A stretch of DNA of 64,000 bases from a phage. Below the pieces are notes generated by a model. That model was not told where the DNA came from and searched no databases. It saw only the letters and a list, made by a program, of their open reading frames with translations. Of this stretch, positions 37,794 to 51,940 are shown in pieces (the stretch's first letter is position 1; each line of letters begins with the position of its first letter). The position numbers and the translations under genes are program-made. The DNA is taken from the sequence record PZ445134.1; one strand, 5' to 3'.

Positions 37794-38007
37794 AAGGAAT
37801 TTCCTCATCGGTGGCAAGGTCATATTCGACCAATTGGATAGGCTCATTAATACCATATCCGCGTACAGTGATATCGGTTGACGGATATTTTCCAGTAATA
37901 TCACCCGTTCTAAAGGCTTCAATGAATGATTGCTCGCCTGAGCAACTAAACCAGGCGGCAAAACATTTTAAAACATCTTCAGACCCTTCTATAATCAATT
38001 TAGCCAT
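37783..38007 (-). CDS. hypothetical protein
   Basis: 74 aa ORF; start adjacent to grcA stop. Confidence 0.4.
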   Translation of the reverse strand: MAKLIIEGSEDVLKCFAAWFSCSGEQSFIEAFRTGDITGKYPSTDITVRGYGINEPIQLVEYDLATDEEIPYAD

Positions 38008-38369
38008 TATAGACTCTCAGTAAAGGTACGAGCGATAACGTCGCTCTGTTGTTCTGGAGTCAGAGAGTTAAAGCGAACTGCATAACCGGATACACGAATG
38101 GTCAGCTGAGGATATTTTTCCGGATGCTTAACTGCATCTTCCAGAGTTTCACGACGCAGAACGTTAACGTTCAGGTGTTGACCACCTTCAATTTTAACTT
38201 TAGGTTGATGTTCAATTTCAATTTCACGGGCATTCAAACCGTAGAAAATTTCCGGGTCTACAATAGCGTCTTCTTTAAAAGTCTTAGAGACAATAATCCG
38301 GGCCTGGGTACCGTCTTCAAAATAAATAGTGCCTTTATGCGCACCTTCAAGAATTTGATATGCTTTCAT
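38007..38369 (-). CDS. grcA: autonomous glycyl radical cofactor GrcA/YfiD homolog
   Basis: 120 aa; C-terminal ...[48 protein letters not shown]...ARTFTESL matches my recall of E. coli GrcA glycyl-radical domain (RVSGYAV). Confidence 0.85.
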
Positions 38370-38375
38370 ATAACC

Positions 38376-38684
38376 TCAATTAGAAAATAAATTTATCCAA
38401 GTTTTTTCTTTAATCAAAAATGGGTCGGAATTAAACGCCATTAAACTTTGAGTGATTAATCCTTTAAATGACCCATCAATAAATTCCATTTTGAAATGCG
38501 GAATACTAGTCATCAACCGTGCATTAGGAGCAGTACAAAGAACCTGCCGACCTGCGAATGGACCTTTAGTCAAACGATATCGTTTAGGTTTAAAATGGTA
38601 GATCTCGTAATTTTCTACAAGAGCCCTTTTATTGCATACTGGGCTGTTATAACAATACTCAAAAACTTCAATAGTGGTCATCAT
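38376..38684 (-). CDS. hypothetical protein
   Basis: Start at ATGATGA overlap with upstream stop. Confidence 0.45.
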   Translation of the reverse strand: MMTTIEVFEYCYNSPVCNKRALVENYEIYHFKPKRYRLTKGPFAGRQVLCTAPNARLMTSIPHFKMEFIDGSFKGLITQSLMAFNSDPFLIKEKTWINLFSN

Positions 38685-39220
38685 TGCATTCCAATCACAA
38701 AAAATTGAGGACGAGCAATACCGCCGATGCAATATTTGCTTTTGCAACAGTGTTGGACTGTTTTAATATGTATGTTGTAAATCTTATCCATATCAGGAGC
38801 TTTAATAGGCTCGTCAATTATATACAGAATACGAGAAAGCGTTAATCCACGGAATTTAGAACCTTCATTGCCAATAAAACTACGGACAGAATCAGTAAAT
38901 AAACGGAATCGAATATCGTCGCTAGAATAACGAGAAAATTCTTTTTTAATGTTGCCAACAGAAATTTTAGCATAGGCTGAAGTATTAGAAAGAACAATAA
39001 CTGTTCCACCGTCATACAGCCAATTAACAGCAAAATTAGTTACTGCAGTCGATTTACCCGATTGTCTGCCGCCGTCTAAACGAAGTGTACAGTACTGCTT
39101 GAGTACGTCTTCAAATGGTGGGGCATAACCGTTCTTACAAATTTCTTCTACTCTAGCATCAGAATGGTGTGTAAAAGCATTCATCAGGGATAGATAAGGT
39201 CCAGTTAAAAATGTTCTCAT
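38681..39220 (-). CDS. P-loop NTPase-like hypothetical protein
   Basis: Start at ATG 39220 (MRTFLTGPYL) with SD; GGRQSGKST Walker-A-like; ORF-track start 39337 runs through the upstream promoter. Confidence 0.5.
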   Translation of the reverse strand: MRTFLTGPYLSLMNAFTHHSDARVEEICKNGYAPPFEDVLKQYCTLRLDGGRQSGKSTAVTNFAVNWLYDGGTVIVLSNTSAYAKISVGNIKKEFSRYSSDDIRFRLFTDSVRSFIGNEGSKFRGLTLSRILYIIDEPIKAPDMDKIYNIHIKTVQHCCKSKYCIGGIARPQFFVIGMQ

Positions 39221-39392
39221 TTTATTCTCTCTAGGTTTGGGCCGTTCCGTGGCACATGTTAGGTCCTTCGCCTCGCTATGTAAACCCATTACCGCACTTG
39301 GGCTCGACCTTATTACAGGTTGGAAAAGGTACATCACTCAGAGGACTCGACGTTCGTAAGGAGAGGTTGCGTTTCCCTTTATTAGGCAAGAA

Positions 39393-39722
39393 TTATACTC
39401 TAGGCTTTTGAGCTTGTTTGGTATTGGATTCCCATGCGGCTTTGGTAATTTTGTTAGCGGCATAACCAAAGGCACTAGATAGAACACCTTTAGAGTTGAA
39501 TACATCCAATCCAATAAGTACGCCGGCTGTGCTAAATTTAGGAGCAAAGTACGCATTAGTTTTAGAAAGAGCTTTTTTCAATTCAGGGTCTTGAACCAAG
39601 CCATCAAAAACGCCTTTACTATTTACTTTATATGTTACTTTGGGATTTTTAGCTTCTTCGATAGCAGCTTTCTGTTCTGCAGATAATGTAACTTCAGTGA
39701 TAAACTCTTGATATGTTTTCAT
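39393..39722 (-). CDS. internal-protein-like protein with capsid-targeting sequence
   Basis: Starts MKTYQEFITE (T4 IP N-terminal targeting/cleavage signal); ORF-track N-terminal extension discarded. Confidence 0.65.
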   Translation of the reverse strand: MKTYQEFITEVTLSAEQKAAIEEAKNPKVTYKVNSKGVFDGLVQDPELKKALSKTNAYFAPKFSTAGVLIGLDVFNSKGVLSSAFGYAANKITKAAWESNTKQAQKPRV

Positions 39723-39834
39723 TTTGTTCTCTCTAAATTTGGGCCATGGAATGGCCCATGAATTGTCCATTTCTGTATTTACCACTCCAAGTAATTATGA
39801 ATATACTATCACAATTTTAGGAGAAAGTAAACTG

Positions 39835-40137
39835 TTATTTACCTTTAATTACTTTAGCTGCTTCGATAGCCGCTTGCTGAAGGTCATCCATAGACATACC
39901 GAATTTAGAAGCAAAGTTATCAATTTTCTTTTCGACAGCATTCAAAGGCTTGGCCTGTTTACCTTCATTAGCGCCAGGAAGAGCGAGAATACGCTCTTTG
40001 TCAATATAAAGGCTTACAAGTTTCTTACGGTCTTTATCGGACAAATCATGAAATGAATGGGCCTTTTTATTTATAGCGGATTCTAATTTACCTGCACTCA
40101 CTCGCGCTTCTGCAATAAATTCTTTATACGTTTTCAT
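39835..40137 (-). CDS. internal-protein-like protein with capsid-targeting sequence
   Basis: Starts MKTYKEFIAEA; 100 aa. Confidence 0.65.
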   Translation of the reverse strand: MKTYKEFIAEARVSAGKLESAINKKAHSFHDLSDKDRKKLVSLYIDKERILALPGANEGKQAKPLNAVEKKIDNFASKFGMSMDDLQQAAIEAAKVIKGK

Positions 40138-40200
40138 TTTTGTTTCCTTGTTTGTTTTGATAGAGTAATTATACCATATTAATACTTAAGCGTAAACTGT

Positions 40201-40461
40201 TTAAGCTTTACCGCCAGAAATAATTCCGAAGTTGTTAAAATCGTATCCAATATCGTCAACATCTACTTTAGGGCTTGCTACAACATAAGCAATTTCACTA
40301 CGTTTTGCATAGGTGTTGATTTCTTTACCATCGCCACCTAAGAAAGAATACCCATTACGTTTTAATGAGCCAAAGTCTTCCGCATCACCAATGAAAGCTT
40401 TAACTTTAAATTTATGACCTTTGGCATCTGCTTCAGCGATAAATTCTTGATACATTTTCAT
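40201..40461 (-). CDS. internal-protein-like protein with capsid-targeting sequence
   Basis: Starts MKMYQEFIAEA; 86 aa. Confidence 0.65.
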   Translation of the reverse strand: MKMYQEFIAEADAKGHKFKVKAFIGDAEDFGSLKRNGYSFLGGDGKEINTYAKRSEIAYVVASPKVDVDDIGYDFNNFGIISGGKA

Positions 40462-40467
40462 TTTTCC

Positions 40468-40881
40468 TTAGTAAATTGATTTACCATAGTATTTGTACCA
40501 AGTAGGACGTTGGGCAATTTTTTCGTCTAAGCGTGCTTGACTTATCGCAATGGACGCTTCGGACGGGACATAATTATTACGAAATTCGGCAGGGATGTCG
40601 GAAATATCCTGGACAGTCGTGTCCTTGATTTTGAAACCACGTTTCAAGCATTCAGCGATTAGCTCGATTTGTCGTAAACGTAAAAATTCGAGTTTGTCGT
40701 AAAAGAATGTTACGTGACCTGTGCCTAAGATAAATGTTGGAGAGATTTTAAAATCCTTTACACGTTTACCGTTTTGAACATGTTTACGGACTGCACCAAA
40801 TACGCGTGGTAATTCACGATACTCAGCCATAAGATGTTGGTCGGTCAGTTCAGAAACAAGTGTTAAATTGATACGAGTCAT
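40468..40881 (-). CDS. denV: endonuclease V (pyrimidine-dimer DNA glycosylase) DenV
   Basis: [34 protein letters not shown]... near-identical to my recall of T4 DenV; start at internal ATG. Confidence 0.9.
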
Positions 40882-40908
40882 AATTTCCTCCAAGTAGTTG
40901 ATGAATGT

Positions 40909-40938
40909 ATAGTATCAAAGTCCTTGGAGGAAGTAAAC
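40909..40938 (-). promoter_or_regulatory. T4-type early promoter inside inverted repeat (denV)
   Basis: Minus strand GTTTAC-18 nt-TACTAT flanked by UUCCUCCAAG/CUUGGAGGAA inverted repeat; 3' arm is the SD. Confidence 0.5.
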
Positions 40939-40939
40939 A

Positions 40940-41221
40940 CTATTTTTCTGAAGCGCCTGAAATATATTTTTCAAGACGTTGTTTCATTAGCGAGCCGTTC
41001 TTAGCGATTTCTTCCGGTTTATCGCACATACGCAACAAGGCTTCAAGCTTAACGATATCACTGGTGCGCTCAAATTTGCGAGTATCTATCTTACTAGCAA
41101 GTTCAGAAATACGTGCTAATAGACTTTCGGCTTCAACCAAAGCTGCACCTAGCTTAGTTGCAAATGTGTCAGTAGCTTCGTTAAGAATAGATTCTGATAA
41201 AAATTCACTATATGTTTTCAT
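40940..41221 (-). CDS. internal-protein-like protein with capsid-targeting sequence
   Basis: Starts [10 protein letters not shown]; start overlaps lysozyme stop (ATGA). Confidence 0.6.
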
Positions 41222-41706
41222 ATATACGCTTTCCAAGTTCCTGTTTTAAATGTTGAGATTACGCGTTTCGCGCGATTAGGTGTCTGACGATACCATTTAG
41301 ACTTGGCTAGATTTACTGCCGCTTCATCCCAACGTTTCTGTTGAAGCATACGAAGAGAATTAGTAAAACCAGCAACGCCTGCTACACCCATTTGGAAGAC
41401 CATATTGACCAATGCACATCGACGAACTGCATCTAAAGAATCATATACCGGTTTAAGTTTAGCATTACCCAAGATTCCGCGAACGGCTTTATCAACGTCT
41501 TCATTAAATAGCTTTTCAGCCTCATCAAGGGTAATTGTACCGTTGCATTTACGTCCGATCATTCTGTCAAGTTCAGCTTTAGCTACGGCTAAAGACGGGT
41601 TCTTTGTTACTAAATGACCTATGCCAATAGTCCAAAAGCCTTCAGTGTCTTTGTATAAAGCCAGTCTAAGACCTTCGTCATTACGAAGCATTTCAAATAT
41701 ATTCAT
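41218..41706 (-). CDS. e: lysozyme (endolysin) e
   Basis: [32 protein letters not shown]... matches T4 lysozyme; start at internal ATG of track ORF. Confidence 0.95.
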
Positions 41707-41740
41707 AATACCTCCCACGTTTATAGGAGGTATTTATTAC

Positions 41741-42199
41741 TTATAGGATGGTAGTGAGCACCTTATATAATGATTTGCCCATTACGTATTCCCATTGAGA
41801 AGGTTTAATTAAAGCGAATGCATCAAATTCAGGAATCTGTCGTCCGTCTGGGAATGTATGATAGGAATTACAAACACTGTTTCTGAATTGCTCGTGCTCT
41901 ACAGGGATGGTATATAGGAACAGATGAATATTCTTATTGTCTGAGTAACGATGTTCACCTAGGTCTTTCAGGAAGGCAGGGTCATATTGTGTAAACCCAG
42001 TTTCTTCTTCGCATTCACGAATAGCGGCTTTGATAGGAGATTCACCGGGCTCGACACGACCTTTAGGAATATCCCACCGATGAGCTAAAGAACCTTTAGG
42101 ACGAGAACCAGTTACACGCCCCATGAATAATTCTTTATCTTCGGTAAGGAAAATAATACCGGCTGATAGTTCTTTCACTTTATTTTTCTTACTCATCAT
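41741..42199 (-). CDS. nudE: Nudix hydrolase NudE
   Basis: Nudix box GRVEPGESPIKAAIRECEEETG; start at MMSKKNK. Confidence 0.8.
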   Translation of the reverse strand: MMSKKNKVKELSAGIIFLTEDKELFMGRVTGSRPKGSLAHRWDIPKGRVEPGESPIKAAIRECEEETGFTQYDPAFLKDLGEHRYSDNKNIHLFLYTIPVEHEQFRNSVCNSYHTFPDGRQIPEFDAFALIKPSQWEYVMGKSLYKVLTTIL

Positions 42200-50971: not shown

Positions 50972-51280
50972 CTATTTTATTCCGCGTGATGCAATCGTAT
51001 TCTGCCGTTTAACGCCAGTTTGTTTAAAGTTATGATTGTCGAGTTGATCGGTGCGAGCAACTCCGAATGATGATTTAATCTTAGCTTTAGATCCTTTAGT
51101 TATAGAAATAAACATCTCGGGAGCCCCTTTCTTAAAGTCCGAAGCAATTACTTCAACACCGTTCTTAGCAAGTGACTTCATAATTGCTTCCGCATACTCA
51201 TCATCAAGACCCGCTTGAGTATGAATAACGAATGTCTTTGGTGCAGCCGCTTCATTGATAAATTCTTTAAATGTTTTCAT
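50972..51280 (-). CDS. internal-protein-like protein with capsid-targeting sequence
   Basis: Starts MKTFKEFINEA; 102 aa. Confidence 0.6.
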   Translation of the reverse strand: MKTFKEFINEAAAPKTFVIHTQAGLDDEYAEAIMKSLAKNGVEVIASDFKKGAPEMFISITKGSKAKIKSSFGVARTDQLDNHNFKQTGVKRQNTIASRGIK

Positions 51281-51340
51281 TTTATTTTCCTAATTAATTT
51301 TGATGAGATAATAGTACCACTACCCTATCTAAAAGTAAAC

Positions 51341-51613
51341 TCATTTTAAATAAATTGCGTATTTTTTATAGCCACCAGGCTCGTGTCGAAGACCCCTATC
51401 ATTAGCAAAACGCTCAATGTTGTTAATTTGATTCTGGTCAAGTTCAGAGATGTCAAACACGAAATAGTTACGTTTGTTACCAACTGTTACATAGTCAGTT
51501 AAATCAATACCATATAGGTAATTGATGTCAGCAATCATAGTCTTGACAGCTTTGCTAATTTTTACTTTTTCGTTAAAAGTAGCTTCATTGATAAATTCTT
51601 TAAATGTTTTCAT
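51341..51613 (-). CDS. internal-protein-like protein with capsid-targeting sequence
   Basis: Starts MKTFKEFINEA; 90 aa. Confidence 0.6.
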   Translation of the reverse strand: MKTFKEFINEATFNEKVKISKAVKTMIADINYLYGIDLTDYVTVGNKRNYFVFDISELDQNQINNIERFANDRGLRHEPGGYKKYAIYLK

Positions 51614-51644
51614 TTTATTTTCTTAATTAATTTTGATAGGACCT

Positions 51645-51674
51645 ACTATAACATAGTCCTATCAACATGTAAAC
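51645..51674 (-). promoter_or_regulatory. T4-type early promoter inside inverted repeat
   Basis: Minus strand GTTTAC-18 nt-TATAGT; flanking inverted repeat AUAGGAC/GUCCUAU. Confidence 0.45.
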
Positions 51675-51676
51675 TA

Positions 51677-51940
51677 TTAAATACCTGCTTCGCGCTTAAC
51701 ATAAGCAACATAAGCTTCGATAGCTTTCTTGCTGGTAATTTTTACCTGACCGCGTCCGTTGCCTTCTTTAGAGTTTTTCTTAACAACTACATTACCATCT
51801 TTAACACCCCATACATGGACATAAGTACCGATGTTTCGGTCGTAGAACATTGCATGGTCGTTGTTGTAAGAGAATGATTCGTAGTTCTCTGTCAGAGTAG
51901 AAGATTGAGATTCAGCGATAAATTCTTTATACGTTTTCAT
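51677..51940 (-). CDS. internal-protein-like protein with capsid-targeting sequence
   Basis: Starts MKTYKEFIAES; 87 aa. Confidence 0.6.
   Translation of the reverse strand: MKTYKEFIAESQSSTLTENYESFSYNNDHAMFYDRNIGTYVHVWGVKDGNVVVKKNSKEGNGRGQVKITSKKAIEAYVAYVKREAGI

Follow-up and report, generated by a model that had tools for sequence, protein, structure and literature searches.

The window, a stretch of 64,000 nucleotides, comes from a Mosigvirus (an RB69-like phage of the T-even type) whose DNA is 97.8% identical to that of phage PNJ-6. Between the lysozyme gene e and vs.8 it carries four short genes grouped around denV, in a position that matches T4 ipII and ipIII. This array is the e-denV-vs.8 hyperplastic internal-protein locus, represented here by four cassettes. 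The original prediction had placed four small genes on either side of denV, and the open reading frames agree exactly with its coordinates, all on the minus strand and with stop codons included. IPa lies upstream of denV, which separates it from IPb, ipII and IPc downstream:

40940 to 41221, minus strand: IPa, 93 aa, internal-protein candidate; RB69 ORF127c; phrog_3499, "internal head protein"
40468 to 40881, minus strand: denV, endonuclease V (pyrimidine-dimer glycosylase); Pfam Pyr_excise, phrog_1183
40201 to 40461, minus strand: IPb, 86 aa, internal-protein candidate; RB69 ORF125c, RefSeq "internal head protein"
39835 to 40137, minus strand: ipII, 100 aa, T4 IPII orthologue; phrog_7857
39393 to 39722, minus strand: IPc, 109 aa, internal-protein candidate; RB69 ORF123c; phrog_3966, "unknown function"

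The genes are tightly packed. The start codon of IPa overlaps the stop codon of e (ATGA at 41218-41221), and IPa is translationally coupled to e, while IPb begins 6 nt past the denV stop. Each of the four genes has a ribosome-binding site and encodes a common N-terminal leader; denV lacks the leader and is a fixed landmark inside the array. "Internal head protein" is already the RefSeq name of both IPa and IPb. IPc, by comparison, is a "hypothetical protein" or carries no annotation in nearly all of the best 25 of 91 matching records.

Expression signals

Three sites resembling early promoters lie within the array:

40909 to 40938, minus strand: GTTTAC-N18-TACTAT, upstream of denV, beginning 2 nt after the IPa stop
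40168 to 40197, minus strand: GTTTAC-N18-TATAAT, upstream of ipII, beginning 4 nt after the IPb stop
39803 to 39832, minus strand: GTTTAC-N18-TAGTAT, upstream of IPc, resembling the region upstream of T4 ipIII

An inverted repeat with arms at 40876-40899 and 40918-40941 contains the site before denV and also takes in the denV Shine-Dalgarno sequence, the site before ipII matches the consensus at 10 of 12 positions and has a TG, and the hairpin TGGGCCAT-gga-ATGGCCCA (39740-39758) comes after the site before IPc. These expression signals share the design of those of T4 ipI, ipII and ipIII. A search of the region against Rfam returned no match at E<=1. No perfect copy of the T4 late promoter TATAAATA was found upstream of any of the four genes, the sole minus-strand copy in the region being inside ipII. 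Hence, we infer late synthesis, which packaging requires, from the T4 precedent and from the coupling to e. A time-resolved omics paper on T4 makes no mention of the internal-protein genes.

A shared leader on unrelated bodies

All four genes had been predicted to begin MKT[YF]xEF[IL]xE. IPa, ipII (MKTYKEFIAE) and IPc (MKTYQEFITE) do so exactly, but IPb (MKMYQEFIAE) has M rather than T at residue 3. With that residue relaxed, the motif MK[TM][YF]xEF[IL]xE is found 7 times when the window is translated in all six frames. Residue frequencies predict 1.3e-5 occurrences and 200 shuffles gave 0, which excludes a chance origin. Three of the seven lie outside the four genes and make up another array, at 50972-51940, which is the ipI locus. 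Work with amber suppressors on T4 IPIII showed that residues 4 and 7 of the leader control targeting and residues 8 and 10 control processing (PMC9026906). Tyr4, Phe7, Ile or Leu8 and Glu10 are present in each of the four genes, including the aromatic residue 4 and Phe7 that mark capsid targeting. The leader is kept at the protein level despite codon differences (ACA/ACG/ATG, ATC/ATT/TTA and GAA/GAG). In some relatives it is weakened by natural variants; in RB69, ORF123c has Ala at residue 10 and the N-terminus of ORF127c is scrambled to MKTYMNFYQN.

The cleavage motif of the prohead protease gp21, (L/I)-x-E, is expected to end at about residue 10, or up to residue 19 in IPI. It ends at residue 10 in all four proteins, as LSE in IPa, IAE in IPb, IAE in ipII and ITE in IPc. 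In IPa, this LSE-S at residues 8-10 (the last dash marks the possible cut) is followed by LNE-A at residues 13-16. The latter is invariant across the IPa family, and the mature protein therefore probably starts at Ala16, after Glu15, with a predicted 78 aa and 8.6 kDa. Cleavage of the IPb leader (MKMYQEFIAE-A) would yield 76 aa, 8.2 kDa and a pI of 6.8, and mature ipII is predicted to have 90 aa, 9.8 kDa and a pI of 9.7. IPc (MKTYQEFITE-V) has a second possible site, IEE-A, at residue 23, and its mature form is likewise basic (pI 9.7). Masses predicted for the mature proteins are 8,630 or 9,187 Da for IPa, 8,152 Da for IPb, 9,836 Da for ipII and 10,621 Da for IPc; ATDTFATK is a candidate N-terminal peptide of mature IPa, and VTLSAEQK that of mature IPc. 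The core gene set described for T4-related phages includes gp20-gp23 of the T4 head (PMC9026906).

Beyond the leader, the bodies are unrelated, as had been claimed: once the leader is taken off, BLASTP aligns no two of them at better than E=0.9. Profile comparison agrees, with a maximum probability of 13.8% among 17 leader-bearing families aligned by hhalign without the leader. All four proteins have PHROG matches (E<1e-30 for IPa, ipII and IPc; E=5e-24 for IPb), some of which are shared, namely phrog_2667 by IPb and IPx and phrog_3966 by IPc and IPz. Because these matches suggested a hidden common fold among the families, that possibility was examined, and it was rejected on the same hhalign maximum. 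The shared matches are best explained as composite clusters joined through the leader.

Searches of Pfam and NCBIfam assigned no family to any of the four, ipII giving only a sub-threshold match to DUF7412, and a sequence search of the PDB with all four, ipII included, returned nothing below E=0.17. None of the seven leader-bearing proteins of the window matches T4 or RB69 IPI beyond the leader, no window protein has a significant match to T4 IPIII, and just 10-11 leader residues of the window proteins align with Bas37_0260. Searches of libraries of 5.8 billion and 1.84 billion proteins found IPa, IPb and IPc almost exclusively in T-even-type phages, and the three are families either restricted to such phages or enriched in Mosigvirus. 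A distant IPa relative, bas37_0261 (47.6%), is also leader-bearing. The IPc family comprises two 90%-identity clusters, and its sole distant relative, P0022 (35% identity), begins MKTYQQFITE. AlphaFold2 built IPa as three helices with moderate confidence (pLDDT 71, pTM 0.35; shallow alignment), a model that has no Foldseek match in the PDB and provides no functional clue; the IPb model (mean pLDDT 44; shallow alignment) is unusable.

Cassette exchange at the locus

The predicted hypervariability of the locus was borne out by comparison across phages. Leader-bearing open reading frames lie beside denV in 30 of 36 T4-like IMG/VR loci, with one to four in each and with both sides of denV occupied in 17 of the 30. 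At least 15 unrelated leader-bearing families occur beside denV in the 36 loci, and they show presence/absence polymorphism. A set of 80 leader-bearing proteins, 71 of them from these IMG/VR loci and the window and the rest references from T4, RB69 and the window's ipI locus, resolved into 16 unrelated families. One of them, F1, lies beside denV in other phages and at the ipI locus in this one.

The boundaries of the exchanged segments could be placed at the nucleotide level:

40108 to 40149, minus strand: recombination joint, a 42-nt block of 30 nt of ipII leader-coding DNA and 12 nt of ribosome-binding region
41192 to 41221, minus strand: equivalent leader block of IPa
40432 to 40461, minus strand: equivalent leader block of IPb
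39693 to 39722, minus strand: equivalent leader block of IPc

Homology to RB69 stops at 39729 and restarts at 40108, and the slot held here by ipII is occupied in RB69 by the unrelated ORF124c. In phage phi25-307, 922 extra nt (an insert of ipIII and an ORF124c-like gene) are bounded by the 42-nt repeat corresponding to 40108-40149. Cassette swaps among the source phage, RB69 and phi25-307 break exactly within the 30-42 nt of leader-coding DNA. We propose that a cassette starts at a leader, continues through the body to its stop codon, takes in an early-type promoter with a ribosome-binding site and extends as far as the next leader. Such cassettes would be gained, lost and swapped through homologous recombination in the 30-42 nt leader/ribosome-binding repeats, and their exchange would allow a phage population to shuffle its repertoire of inhibitors.

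Proposed packaging, injection and restriction inhibition

The four products are most likely injected anti-restriction proteins. In the proposed mechanism, each would be made with the 10-residue capsid targeting sequence MK(T/M)YxEF(I/L)xE, which would bind the prohead scaffolding core, so that the protein would already be part of the head when DNA enters. The protease gp21 would then cut after the Glu of (L/I)-x-E (Glu10 in IPb, ipII and IPc, most likely Glu15 in IPa), leaving a mature protein of 8-10 kDa in the head. Ejected into the next host with the DNA, ahead of any phage gene expression, each mature protein would bind and block a single specific nuclease of that host, one directed against sugar-modified cytosines in phage DNA. 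The four genes very probably encode packaged internal proteins, and we consider the explanation as a whole, that of packaged, injected, nuclease-blocking cassettes in a shuffled locus, to be probable. No virion proteomics of Mosigvirus or RB69-like phages was found in the literature searched.

The earlier proposal that these genes are candidates for injected anti-restriction effectors is supported by leader residues that match T4 and by ipII, which shares 92% identity with T4 IPII over 88 body residues (E=2e-57), covers positions 1-100 of 100 of phrog_7857 (E=7e-54) and is 95.5% identical to T4 in its DNA. T4 IPII (Ip2) is packaged, injected and inhibits the GmrSD of ECOR21 (BrxU), a type IV enzyme (PMC12373910). 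By analogy, there is good reason to expect ipII to inhibit GmrSD/BrxU-type type IV restriction enzymes as Ip2 does, and this naturally transferred gene predicts resistance to enzymes of the BrxU type. For IPa, IPb and IPc, we infer packaging, cleavage, injection and anti-restriction activity, each protein being proposed to block a different modification-dependent nuclease. The chances that all three are type IV restriction inhibitors seem about even. The more specific proposal, that each neutralizes a distinct and new E. coli or Shigella modification-dependent defence recognizing DNA with arabinosylated 5-hydroxycytosine, is offered tentatively and is somewhat harder to credit.

Packaged proteins could instead act mainly in structure or charge neutralization, serving core assembly or DNA condensation and ejection rather than defence inhibition. 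The basic character of mature ipII and IPc would suit such a role, in T4 IPIII mutants head assembly runs at about half speed and the burst is about 40% of normal (PMC9026906), and lysines of internal proteins touch DNA phosphates in T4 heads (PMC3012670). However, a structural role predicts conservation, and what is seen is a locus of interchangeable families that come and go. Furthermore, cleavage at Glu10 would leave IPa and IPb close to neutral (pI 6.3-6.8), T4 lacking all three internal proteins is viable (PMC9026906), and specific nuclease targets are now known for all three, IPIII included (PMC12373910). A mainly structural role is therefore unlikely, though structural and inhibitory roles are not mutually exclusive.

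A reading in which the leader is kept just as a recombination handle, with the proteins made after injection as early cytoplasmic effectors and packaged in no useful amount, draws on the fall of the recombination joints in leader-coding DNA, on the early-type promoters that precede or co-transcribe three of the four genes while none has a consensus late promoter, and on the finding that leaderless T4 IPIII retains its function when produced in the host cytoplasm (PMC9391042). Yet the protein sequence of the leader is preserved although its codons have changed, synonymously or conservatively, with residues 4, 7, 8 and 10 present in all families, and translation of IPa is linked to that of the late lysis gene e. 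The early-promoter design is shared by T4 ipI, ipII and ipIII, whose products are nonetheless packaged at about 300 copies each (PMC9026906 for packaging). In addition, a restriction inhibitor is needed before DNA is cut, which favours co-injection; we regard this reading as quite improbable. As to whether some of the four are chance reading frames or decayed remnants rather than genes, their short length (86-109 aa) and the lack of a Pfam or NCBIfam family would fit, but each has a ribosome-binding site and leader, PHROG matches extend to all four, and the leader motif is far beyond chance. Each is also conserved, with 90-100% identity across 77-239 phage records, and more remote relatives exist for each. 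Conservation effectively refutes this last reading, which is hardly credible.

If the products are injected inhibitors, they would form the first counter-defence of a T-even phage, since internal proteins act before any phage gene is expressed. Between 2022 and 2025, all the T4 internal proteins, together with one of Bas37, were each paired with a specific type IV restriction enzyme, so each orphan family becomes a probe for a further host nuclease. This locus supplies three orphans (IPa, IPb and IPc) from a genus whose DNA bears arabinose rather than glucose. Should each of them prove to have a distinct defence target, they would reveal inhibitor-nuclease pairs beyond the GmrSD variants already tested. 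Cassette content may plausibly also decide which wild strains of E. coli a Mosigvirus can infect, with relevance for phage therapy and host-range prediction.

The type of locus, the leader and the idea of shuffling are textbook T4 biology, the variable locus has been known since 1994, and near-identical sequence is in GenBank. The view of internal proteins as diverse injected defence inhibitors that share only the leader has been stated before (PMC3012670). Two hyperplastic internal-protein loci of T-even phages go back to Repoila et al. 1994, as cited in PMC12373910 and PMC4122927. In the accounts available of these loci and of PeSL shuffling (Arbiol 2010; Comeau 2014), open reading frames vary in number, order and identity, as here, and conserved leader and promoter sequences flank each of them and are proposed to mediate shuffling. 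The GTTTAC-N18-TAnnAT sites upstream of denV, ipII and IPc and the inverted repeats at denV and IPc may correspond to PeSL elements; the joints mapped here, however, lie in the leader/ribosome-binding block and not in a promoter or stem-loop.

Among close relatives with this locus, PNJ-9 being another, PNJ-6 has the identical four-gene arrangement, and RB69, of the same genus, has the same gene order, with IPc, IPb and IPa 95-100% identical to ORF123c, ORF125c and ORF127c. In contrast, phi25-307 carries six cassettes, with both ipII and ORF124c plus ipIII, and Av-05 has ipIII in the slot held here by ipII. Besides the source phage and PNJ-6, the Mosigviruses ST0 and HX01 carry ipII. T4 does have two internal-protein genes at this position (order e-ipIII-ipII-denV-vs.8), as had been noted, both upstream of denV, whereas here one lies upstream and three downstream. 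The contrast drawn between four genes here and ipII and ipIII in T4 holds for the count of four, but one of the four is ipII itself, and since RB69 also has four, this is the normal count for the genus.

The array resembles the T4 Ip1-3 genes in its leader, (L/I)xE motif, early-promoter and hairpin design upstream, protein size (8-20 kDa) and use of the same two loci (e-denV-vs.8 and 57B-tRNA). It differs in that IPa, IPb and IPc are unrelated in sequence to Ip1-3 and the window lacks an IPI or IPIII homologue. The DNA to be protected also differs, T4 having glucosyl and the source phage arabinosyl cytosine modifications; Mosigvirus DNA, with its arabinosylated cytosines, is cut by BrxU (PMC13390438). 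Inhibition of type IV restriction by internal proteins has already been shown for T4 Ip1-3 (Silas 2025) and for Bas37_0260. Ip1 and Ip3 each inhibit a different GmrSD, those of CT596 and ECOR17, respectively (PMC12373910). Tests of ip4-ip10 from T4-like phages against a panel of GmrSD variants gave no reproducible new pairs (Silas et al. 2025), and it is thus not established that every internal protein inhibits a GmrSD. Bas37_0260 of the Tequatrovirus Bas37, which inhibits McrBC (preprint 10.1101/2025.11.20.689424), shares the leader and locus class of the genes described here and differs in having no homologue in the window beyond the leader; its neighbour, bas37_0261, is a relative of IPa.

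Leader-bearing genes around denV

The array region, in which every gene is carried on the minus strand, has the following layout.

Genes of the array region, in transcription order
41218-41706, minus strand: e (lysozyme)
40940-41221, minus strand: IPa, 93-aa ORF, counterpart of RB69 ORF127c
40468-40881, minus strand: denV
40201-40461, minus strand: IPb, 86-aa ORF, counterpart of RB69 ORF125c
39835-40137, minus strand: ipII, 100-aa ORF
39393-39722, minus strand: IPc, 109-aa ORF starting MKTYQEFITE, counterpart of RB69 ORF123c
172 nt, minus strand: gap between IPc and vs.8
38681-39220, minus strand: vs.8

The coordinates originally predicted for the four small ORFs match exactly. The start MKT[YF]x[E]F[IL]xE ascribed to all of them holds for three, while residue 3 of IPb is Met, not Thr. 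Relaxed to MK[TM][YF]xEF[IL]xE, the leader motif has seven matches in a six-frame translation of the 64-kb window (1.3e-5 expected by residue frequencies) and none in 200 shuffles of the window. Three of the seven lie together at 50972-51940 as a further array in the ipI locus, which 57B and the tRNA genes flank.

Leader genes of the ipI locus
51677-51940, minus strand: start MKTYKEFIAE
51341-51613, minus strand: start MKTFKEFINE
50972-51280, minus strand: IPx, start MKTFKEFINE, 65% identical to RB69 ORF156, family beside denV in 13 other phages

The bodies of the four array proteins are unrelated, as had been claimed: without the first 11-12 residues, BLASTP among them gives a best E=0.9, and profile-profile comparison among 17 families gives a probability of at most 13.8%.

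In T4, residues 1-10 of IPIII are enough for packaging (Black-laboratory work, reviewed in PMC9026906); residues 4 and 7 serve targeting and residues 8 and 10 prohead protease processing, and Asp at residue 10 keeps packaging but blocks cleavage (PMC9026906). Y4, F7, I/L8, and E10 are present in all four array proteins, and thus each carries an (L/I)-x-E site whose Glu is residue 10. Because E10 varies in the IPa family (V10 in two database variants; RB69 ORF127c starts MKTYMNFYQN) whereas LNE/A at residues 13-16 is invariant and aligns to ITE/S of bas37_0261 (a 47.6% identical relative in Tequatrovirus Bas37), IPa is probably cut after E15, a predicted late cut that resembles the longer propeptide of IPI. 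At the DNA level the seven leaders have in common the near-invariant block ATGAAAAC-T-T---GA-TTT-T----GAA, and their differences fall at synonymous and conservative positions, which argues for selection on the leader peptide, beyond DNA alone.

In RB69 ORF123c (1694-2023 of the RB69 reference L002), residue 10 is Ala, not Glu (FIAA), a change expected to prevent cleavage there. RB69 ORF127c (L002 3167-3448) reads MKTYMNFYQNLSLNE, unlike IPa of the window, and retains the LNE site; its N-terminus has the look of two mutually compensating frameshifts or of sequencing errors.

T4 early-type promoters begin 2–4 nt past the preceding gene's stop codon.

Early-type promoters (GTTTAC-N18-TAnnAT)
40938-40909, minus strand: upstream of denV
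40197-40168, minus strand: upstream of ipII
39832-39803, minus strand: upstream of IPc

The same sequence lies upstream of the three ipI-locus genes, each with its own GTTTAC-type promoter, and the arrangement is that of T4 ipI, ipII, ipIII, and denV. A 24-nt imperfect inverted repeat, which takes in the Shine-Dalgarno sequence, surrounds the denV promoter, and a perfect 8-bp hairpin lies 5' of the IPc ribosome-binding site. Only 6 nt separate the denV stop from the IPb start, and the IPa start overlaps the e stop (ATGA), which implies that IPa is co-expressed with the lysis gene. No consensus late promoter TATAAATA occurs upstream of any of the four array genes, so that we infer late synthesis of their products only from T4 precedent. 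Upstream of e itself (41707-41760, minus strand), the ribosome-binding site GGAGG follows a complementary CCTCC (cctcctataaacgtgggagg), which gives a hairpin of the T4 type that keeps e silent on early transcripts. T4 e has two perfect late promoters, TATAAATA, whereas the window has the imperfect versions TATAAGTA and TATAAACG.

Relatives and protein families

Over its full length, the 2.6-kb array region shares 97.8% identity with Escherichia phage PNJ-6 (Mosigvirus); with RB69 the identity is 97.5% across 85% of the region. PNJ-6 carries all four genes and annotates one as "ipII protein", the other three as "hypothetical". The RB69 counterparts of the four slots are ORF127c, ORF125c, ORF124c, and ORF123c, the first two named "internal head protein" in RefSeq. 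IPa, IPb, and IPc are 95–100% identical to ORF127c, ORF125c, and ORF123c, but the third slot, which holds the unrelated ORF124c in RB69, here contains a gene 92% identical to T4 IPII. The T4 order at this locus is e-ipIII-ipII-denV-vs.8; the contrast originally drawn between two genes in T4 and four here is correct in its counts, but four is the usual number in the genus Mosigvirus.

PHROG places IPa in phrog_3499 ("internal head protein"), ipII in phrog_7857 ("internal virion protein", E=7e-54), IPb in phrog_2667 ("internal head protein"), and IPc in phrog_3966 ("unknown function"); searches of Pfam, NCBIfam, and PDB with all four proteins gave no match for any. Strong matches to phrog_2667 come from IPx (E=3e-40) and also from IPb (E=8e-21), which is unrelated to IPx, and phrog_3966 is matched by IPc and weakly by IPz. 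Kinship of IPb with IPx, or of IPc with IPz, was rejected since hhalign without the leader gives a probability of at most 14%; phrog_2667 and phrog_3966 therefore appear to be composite clusters chained via the common leader.

IPc has a canonical leader, yet among the matches listed no record names it an internal protein. At 90% identity its family forms two clusters within 5.8 billion proteins, and when 1.84 billion representatives were scanned exhaustively with HMMER, one close cluster and one distant relative (P0022) turned up; P0022 has a leader of its own, MKTYQQFITE. Five further weak matches in that scan were to long or multi-stretch proteins, the sole one inspected (P0021) being a tandem repeat. 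Judged from these matches, the families of the array proteins are apparently confined to T-even-type phages.

Cassette exchange and the region before vs.8

With denV as anchor, we retrieved 80 loci from IMG/VR, of which 36 were T4-like (denV identity at least 60%). The predicted hypervariability was borne out by this comparison: 30 of the 36 carry 1–4 leader ORFs in the ~2 kb around denV, and in 17 such ORFs lie on both sides of it. Eighty leader-bearing proteins (71 from the IMG/VR loci and the window, plus references from T4, RB69, and the window's ipI locus) form 16 families whose mutual relation is undetectable. The ipI locus of RB69 holds ipI and ORF156, whereas that of the window holds three leader genes, none an IPI homologue. 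Family F1 borders denV in 13 loci, yet in the window it occupies the ipI locus; cassettes therefore move between the two loci.

In pairwise DNA comparison, window/RB69 homology ends at 39729, 7 nt upstream of the IPc start, and restarts at 40108, ipII codon 10; the exchanged segment is exactly the stretch between these breakpoints. Phage phi25-307 has 922 additional nt with ipIII and an ORF124c-like gene, flanked by a 42-nt direct repeat that corresponds to window 40108-40149 (leader and ribosome-binding region), and the variable slot of Av-05 is ipIII. The recombination joints are readable to the nucleotide, a point of modest remaining interest. The ipII body shows 94–99% DNA identity across 189 phage records, including RB69-like coliphages, T4, and Klebsiella, Raoultella, and Salmonella phages, whereas denV protein identity is only 62–92% in the same comparisons, which indicates recent horizontal spread of ipII. 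In the phage collection, IPa-type bodies (>90% identity) occur in 239 records, IPb (80% or more) in 176, and IPc (90% or more) in 77; therefore, the slots closest to vs.8 are the most variable.

A 48-nt stretch 5' of the vs.8 start (39211-39258, minus strand; hairpin plus tagagagaataaaATGAGAACAT) resembles the IPc 5' region (39692-39758, minus strand), where hairpin TGGGCCATggaATGGCCCA is joined by tagagagaacaaaATGAAAACAT. The resemblance suggests that the vs.8 translation-initiation region either mediated insertion of the IPc cassette or was copied by it. Farther along, vs.6 (38007-38369, minus strand) is an autonomous glycyl-radical cofactor, GrcA/YfiD-like with an RVSGYAV motif; it is annotated likewise in T4 and RB69 and is a known feature.

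The IPc–vs.8 gap has content of its own: from the IPc stop to the vs.8 ATG (~39221-39345, minus strand) lies a nucleotide element with near-invariant blocks, the core being ACCTGTAATAAGGTCGAGC...GCGGTAA followed by a GCCA-nGGAA-TGGC hairpin ~20 nt before the vs.8 Shine-Dalgarno sequence. More than 1,000 T4-like phage records contain the element, as do 34 of the 40 T4-like loci that were searched, in each case directly ahead of vs.8. T4 annotation treats it as an N-terminal extension of vs.8, but indels shift the frame between phages, which rules out coding as the cause of its conservation. The short helix closing two invariant hairpins covaries (one pair UA/AU/CG/UG, another CG/GC), with 96% of cells paired versus 87.5% in shuffles; the observed value was reached in 0 of 500 shuffles. 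RNAalifold did not find the closing helix unaided, the whole vs.8 leader showed no unusual stability, and Rfam gave no match to the element. The element may be a structured leader or a cis-regulatory element.

Relation to known internal proteins

T4 IPI* enters the host by injection and blocks the GmrSD of strain CT596 (PMC3012670), and T4 without ipIII cannot infect ECOR17, leaderless IPIII complementing from the cytoplasm (PMC9391042). Each of Ip1, Ip2, and Ip3 blocks a single, different type IV restriction enzyme of the GmrSD type, and none protects against the enzyme of another; with ip4-ip10, taken from related phages, no new pairing could be reproduced (PMC12373910). The same study proposes GmrSD variants as the targets of every protein from "the two Ip loci". 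The leader-bearing Bas37_0260 inhibits McrBC (preprint 10.1101/2025.11.20.689424). Mosigvirus DNA, with mono- and di-arabinosylated 5-hydroxycytosine, is cut by the GmrSD-family enzyme BrxU (PMC13390438), the enzyme type blocked by T4 Ip2 (PMC12373910), which makes the ipII cassette of this phage a credible BrxU/GmrSD inhibitor. Sequence comparison of IPa, IPb, and IPc with IPI, IPIII, and Bas37_0260 showed no relation. Predicted mature ipII and IPc are basic (pI 9.7), and IPa and IPb near neutral. Structure prediction was no help with function for IPb (pLDDT 44) or for IPa (three helices, pLDDT 71, no PDB match).

The array is thus confirmed, and its interpretation as internal-protein and anti-restriction candidates is supported by leader residues, ipII orthology, and locus variability. 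The finding is already known, and the remaining points are of modest interest: three orphan internal proteins (IPa, IPb, and IPc) in an arabinose-modified genus, and IPc (RB69 ORF123c family), with its canonical leader and no internal-protein annotation among the matches listed. The locus is one of two "hyperplastic" internal-protein loci of Repoila et al. 1994, as that work is cited in PMC12373910 and PMC4122927, and reviews explicitly set out the idea of anti-restriction proteins that are leader-tagged, shuffled, and injected (PMC9026906, PMC3012670). One of the four genes belongs to the IPII family and none to the IPI, IPIII, or Bas37_0260 families. By every sequence feature testable here, the array falls within the T4 internal-protein class and, by analogy, would work like it.
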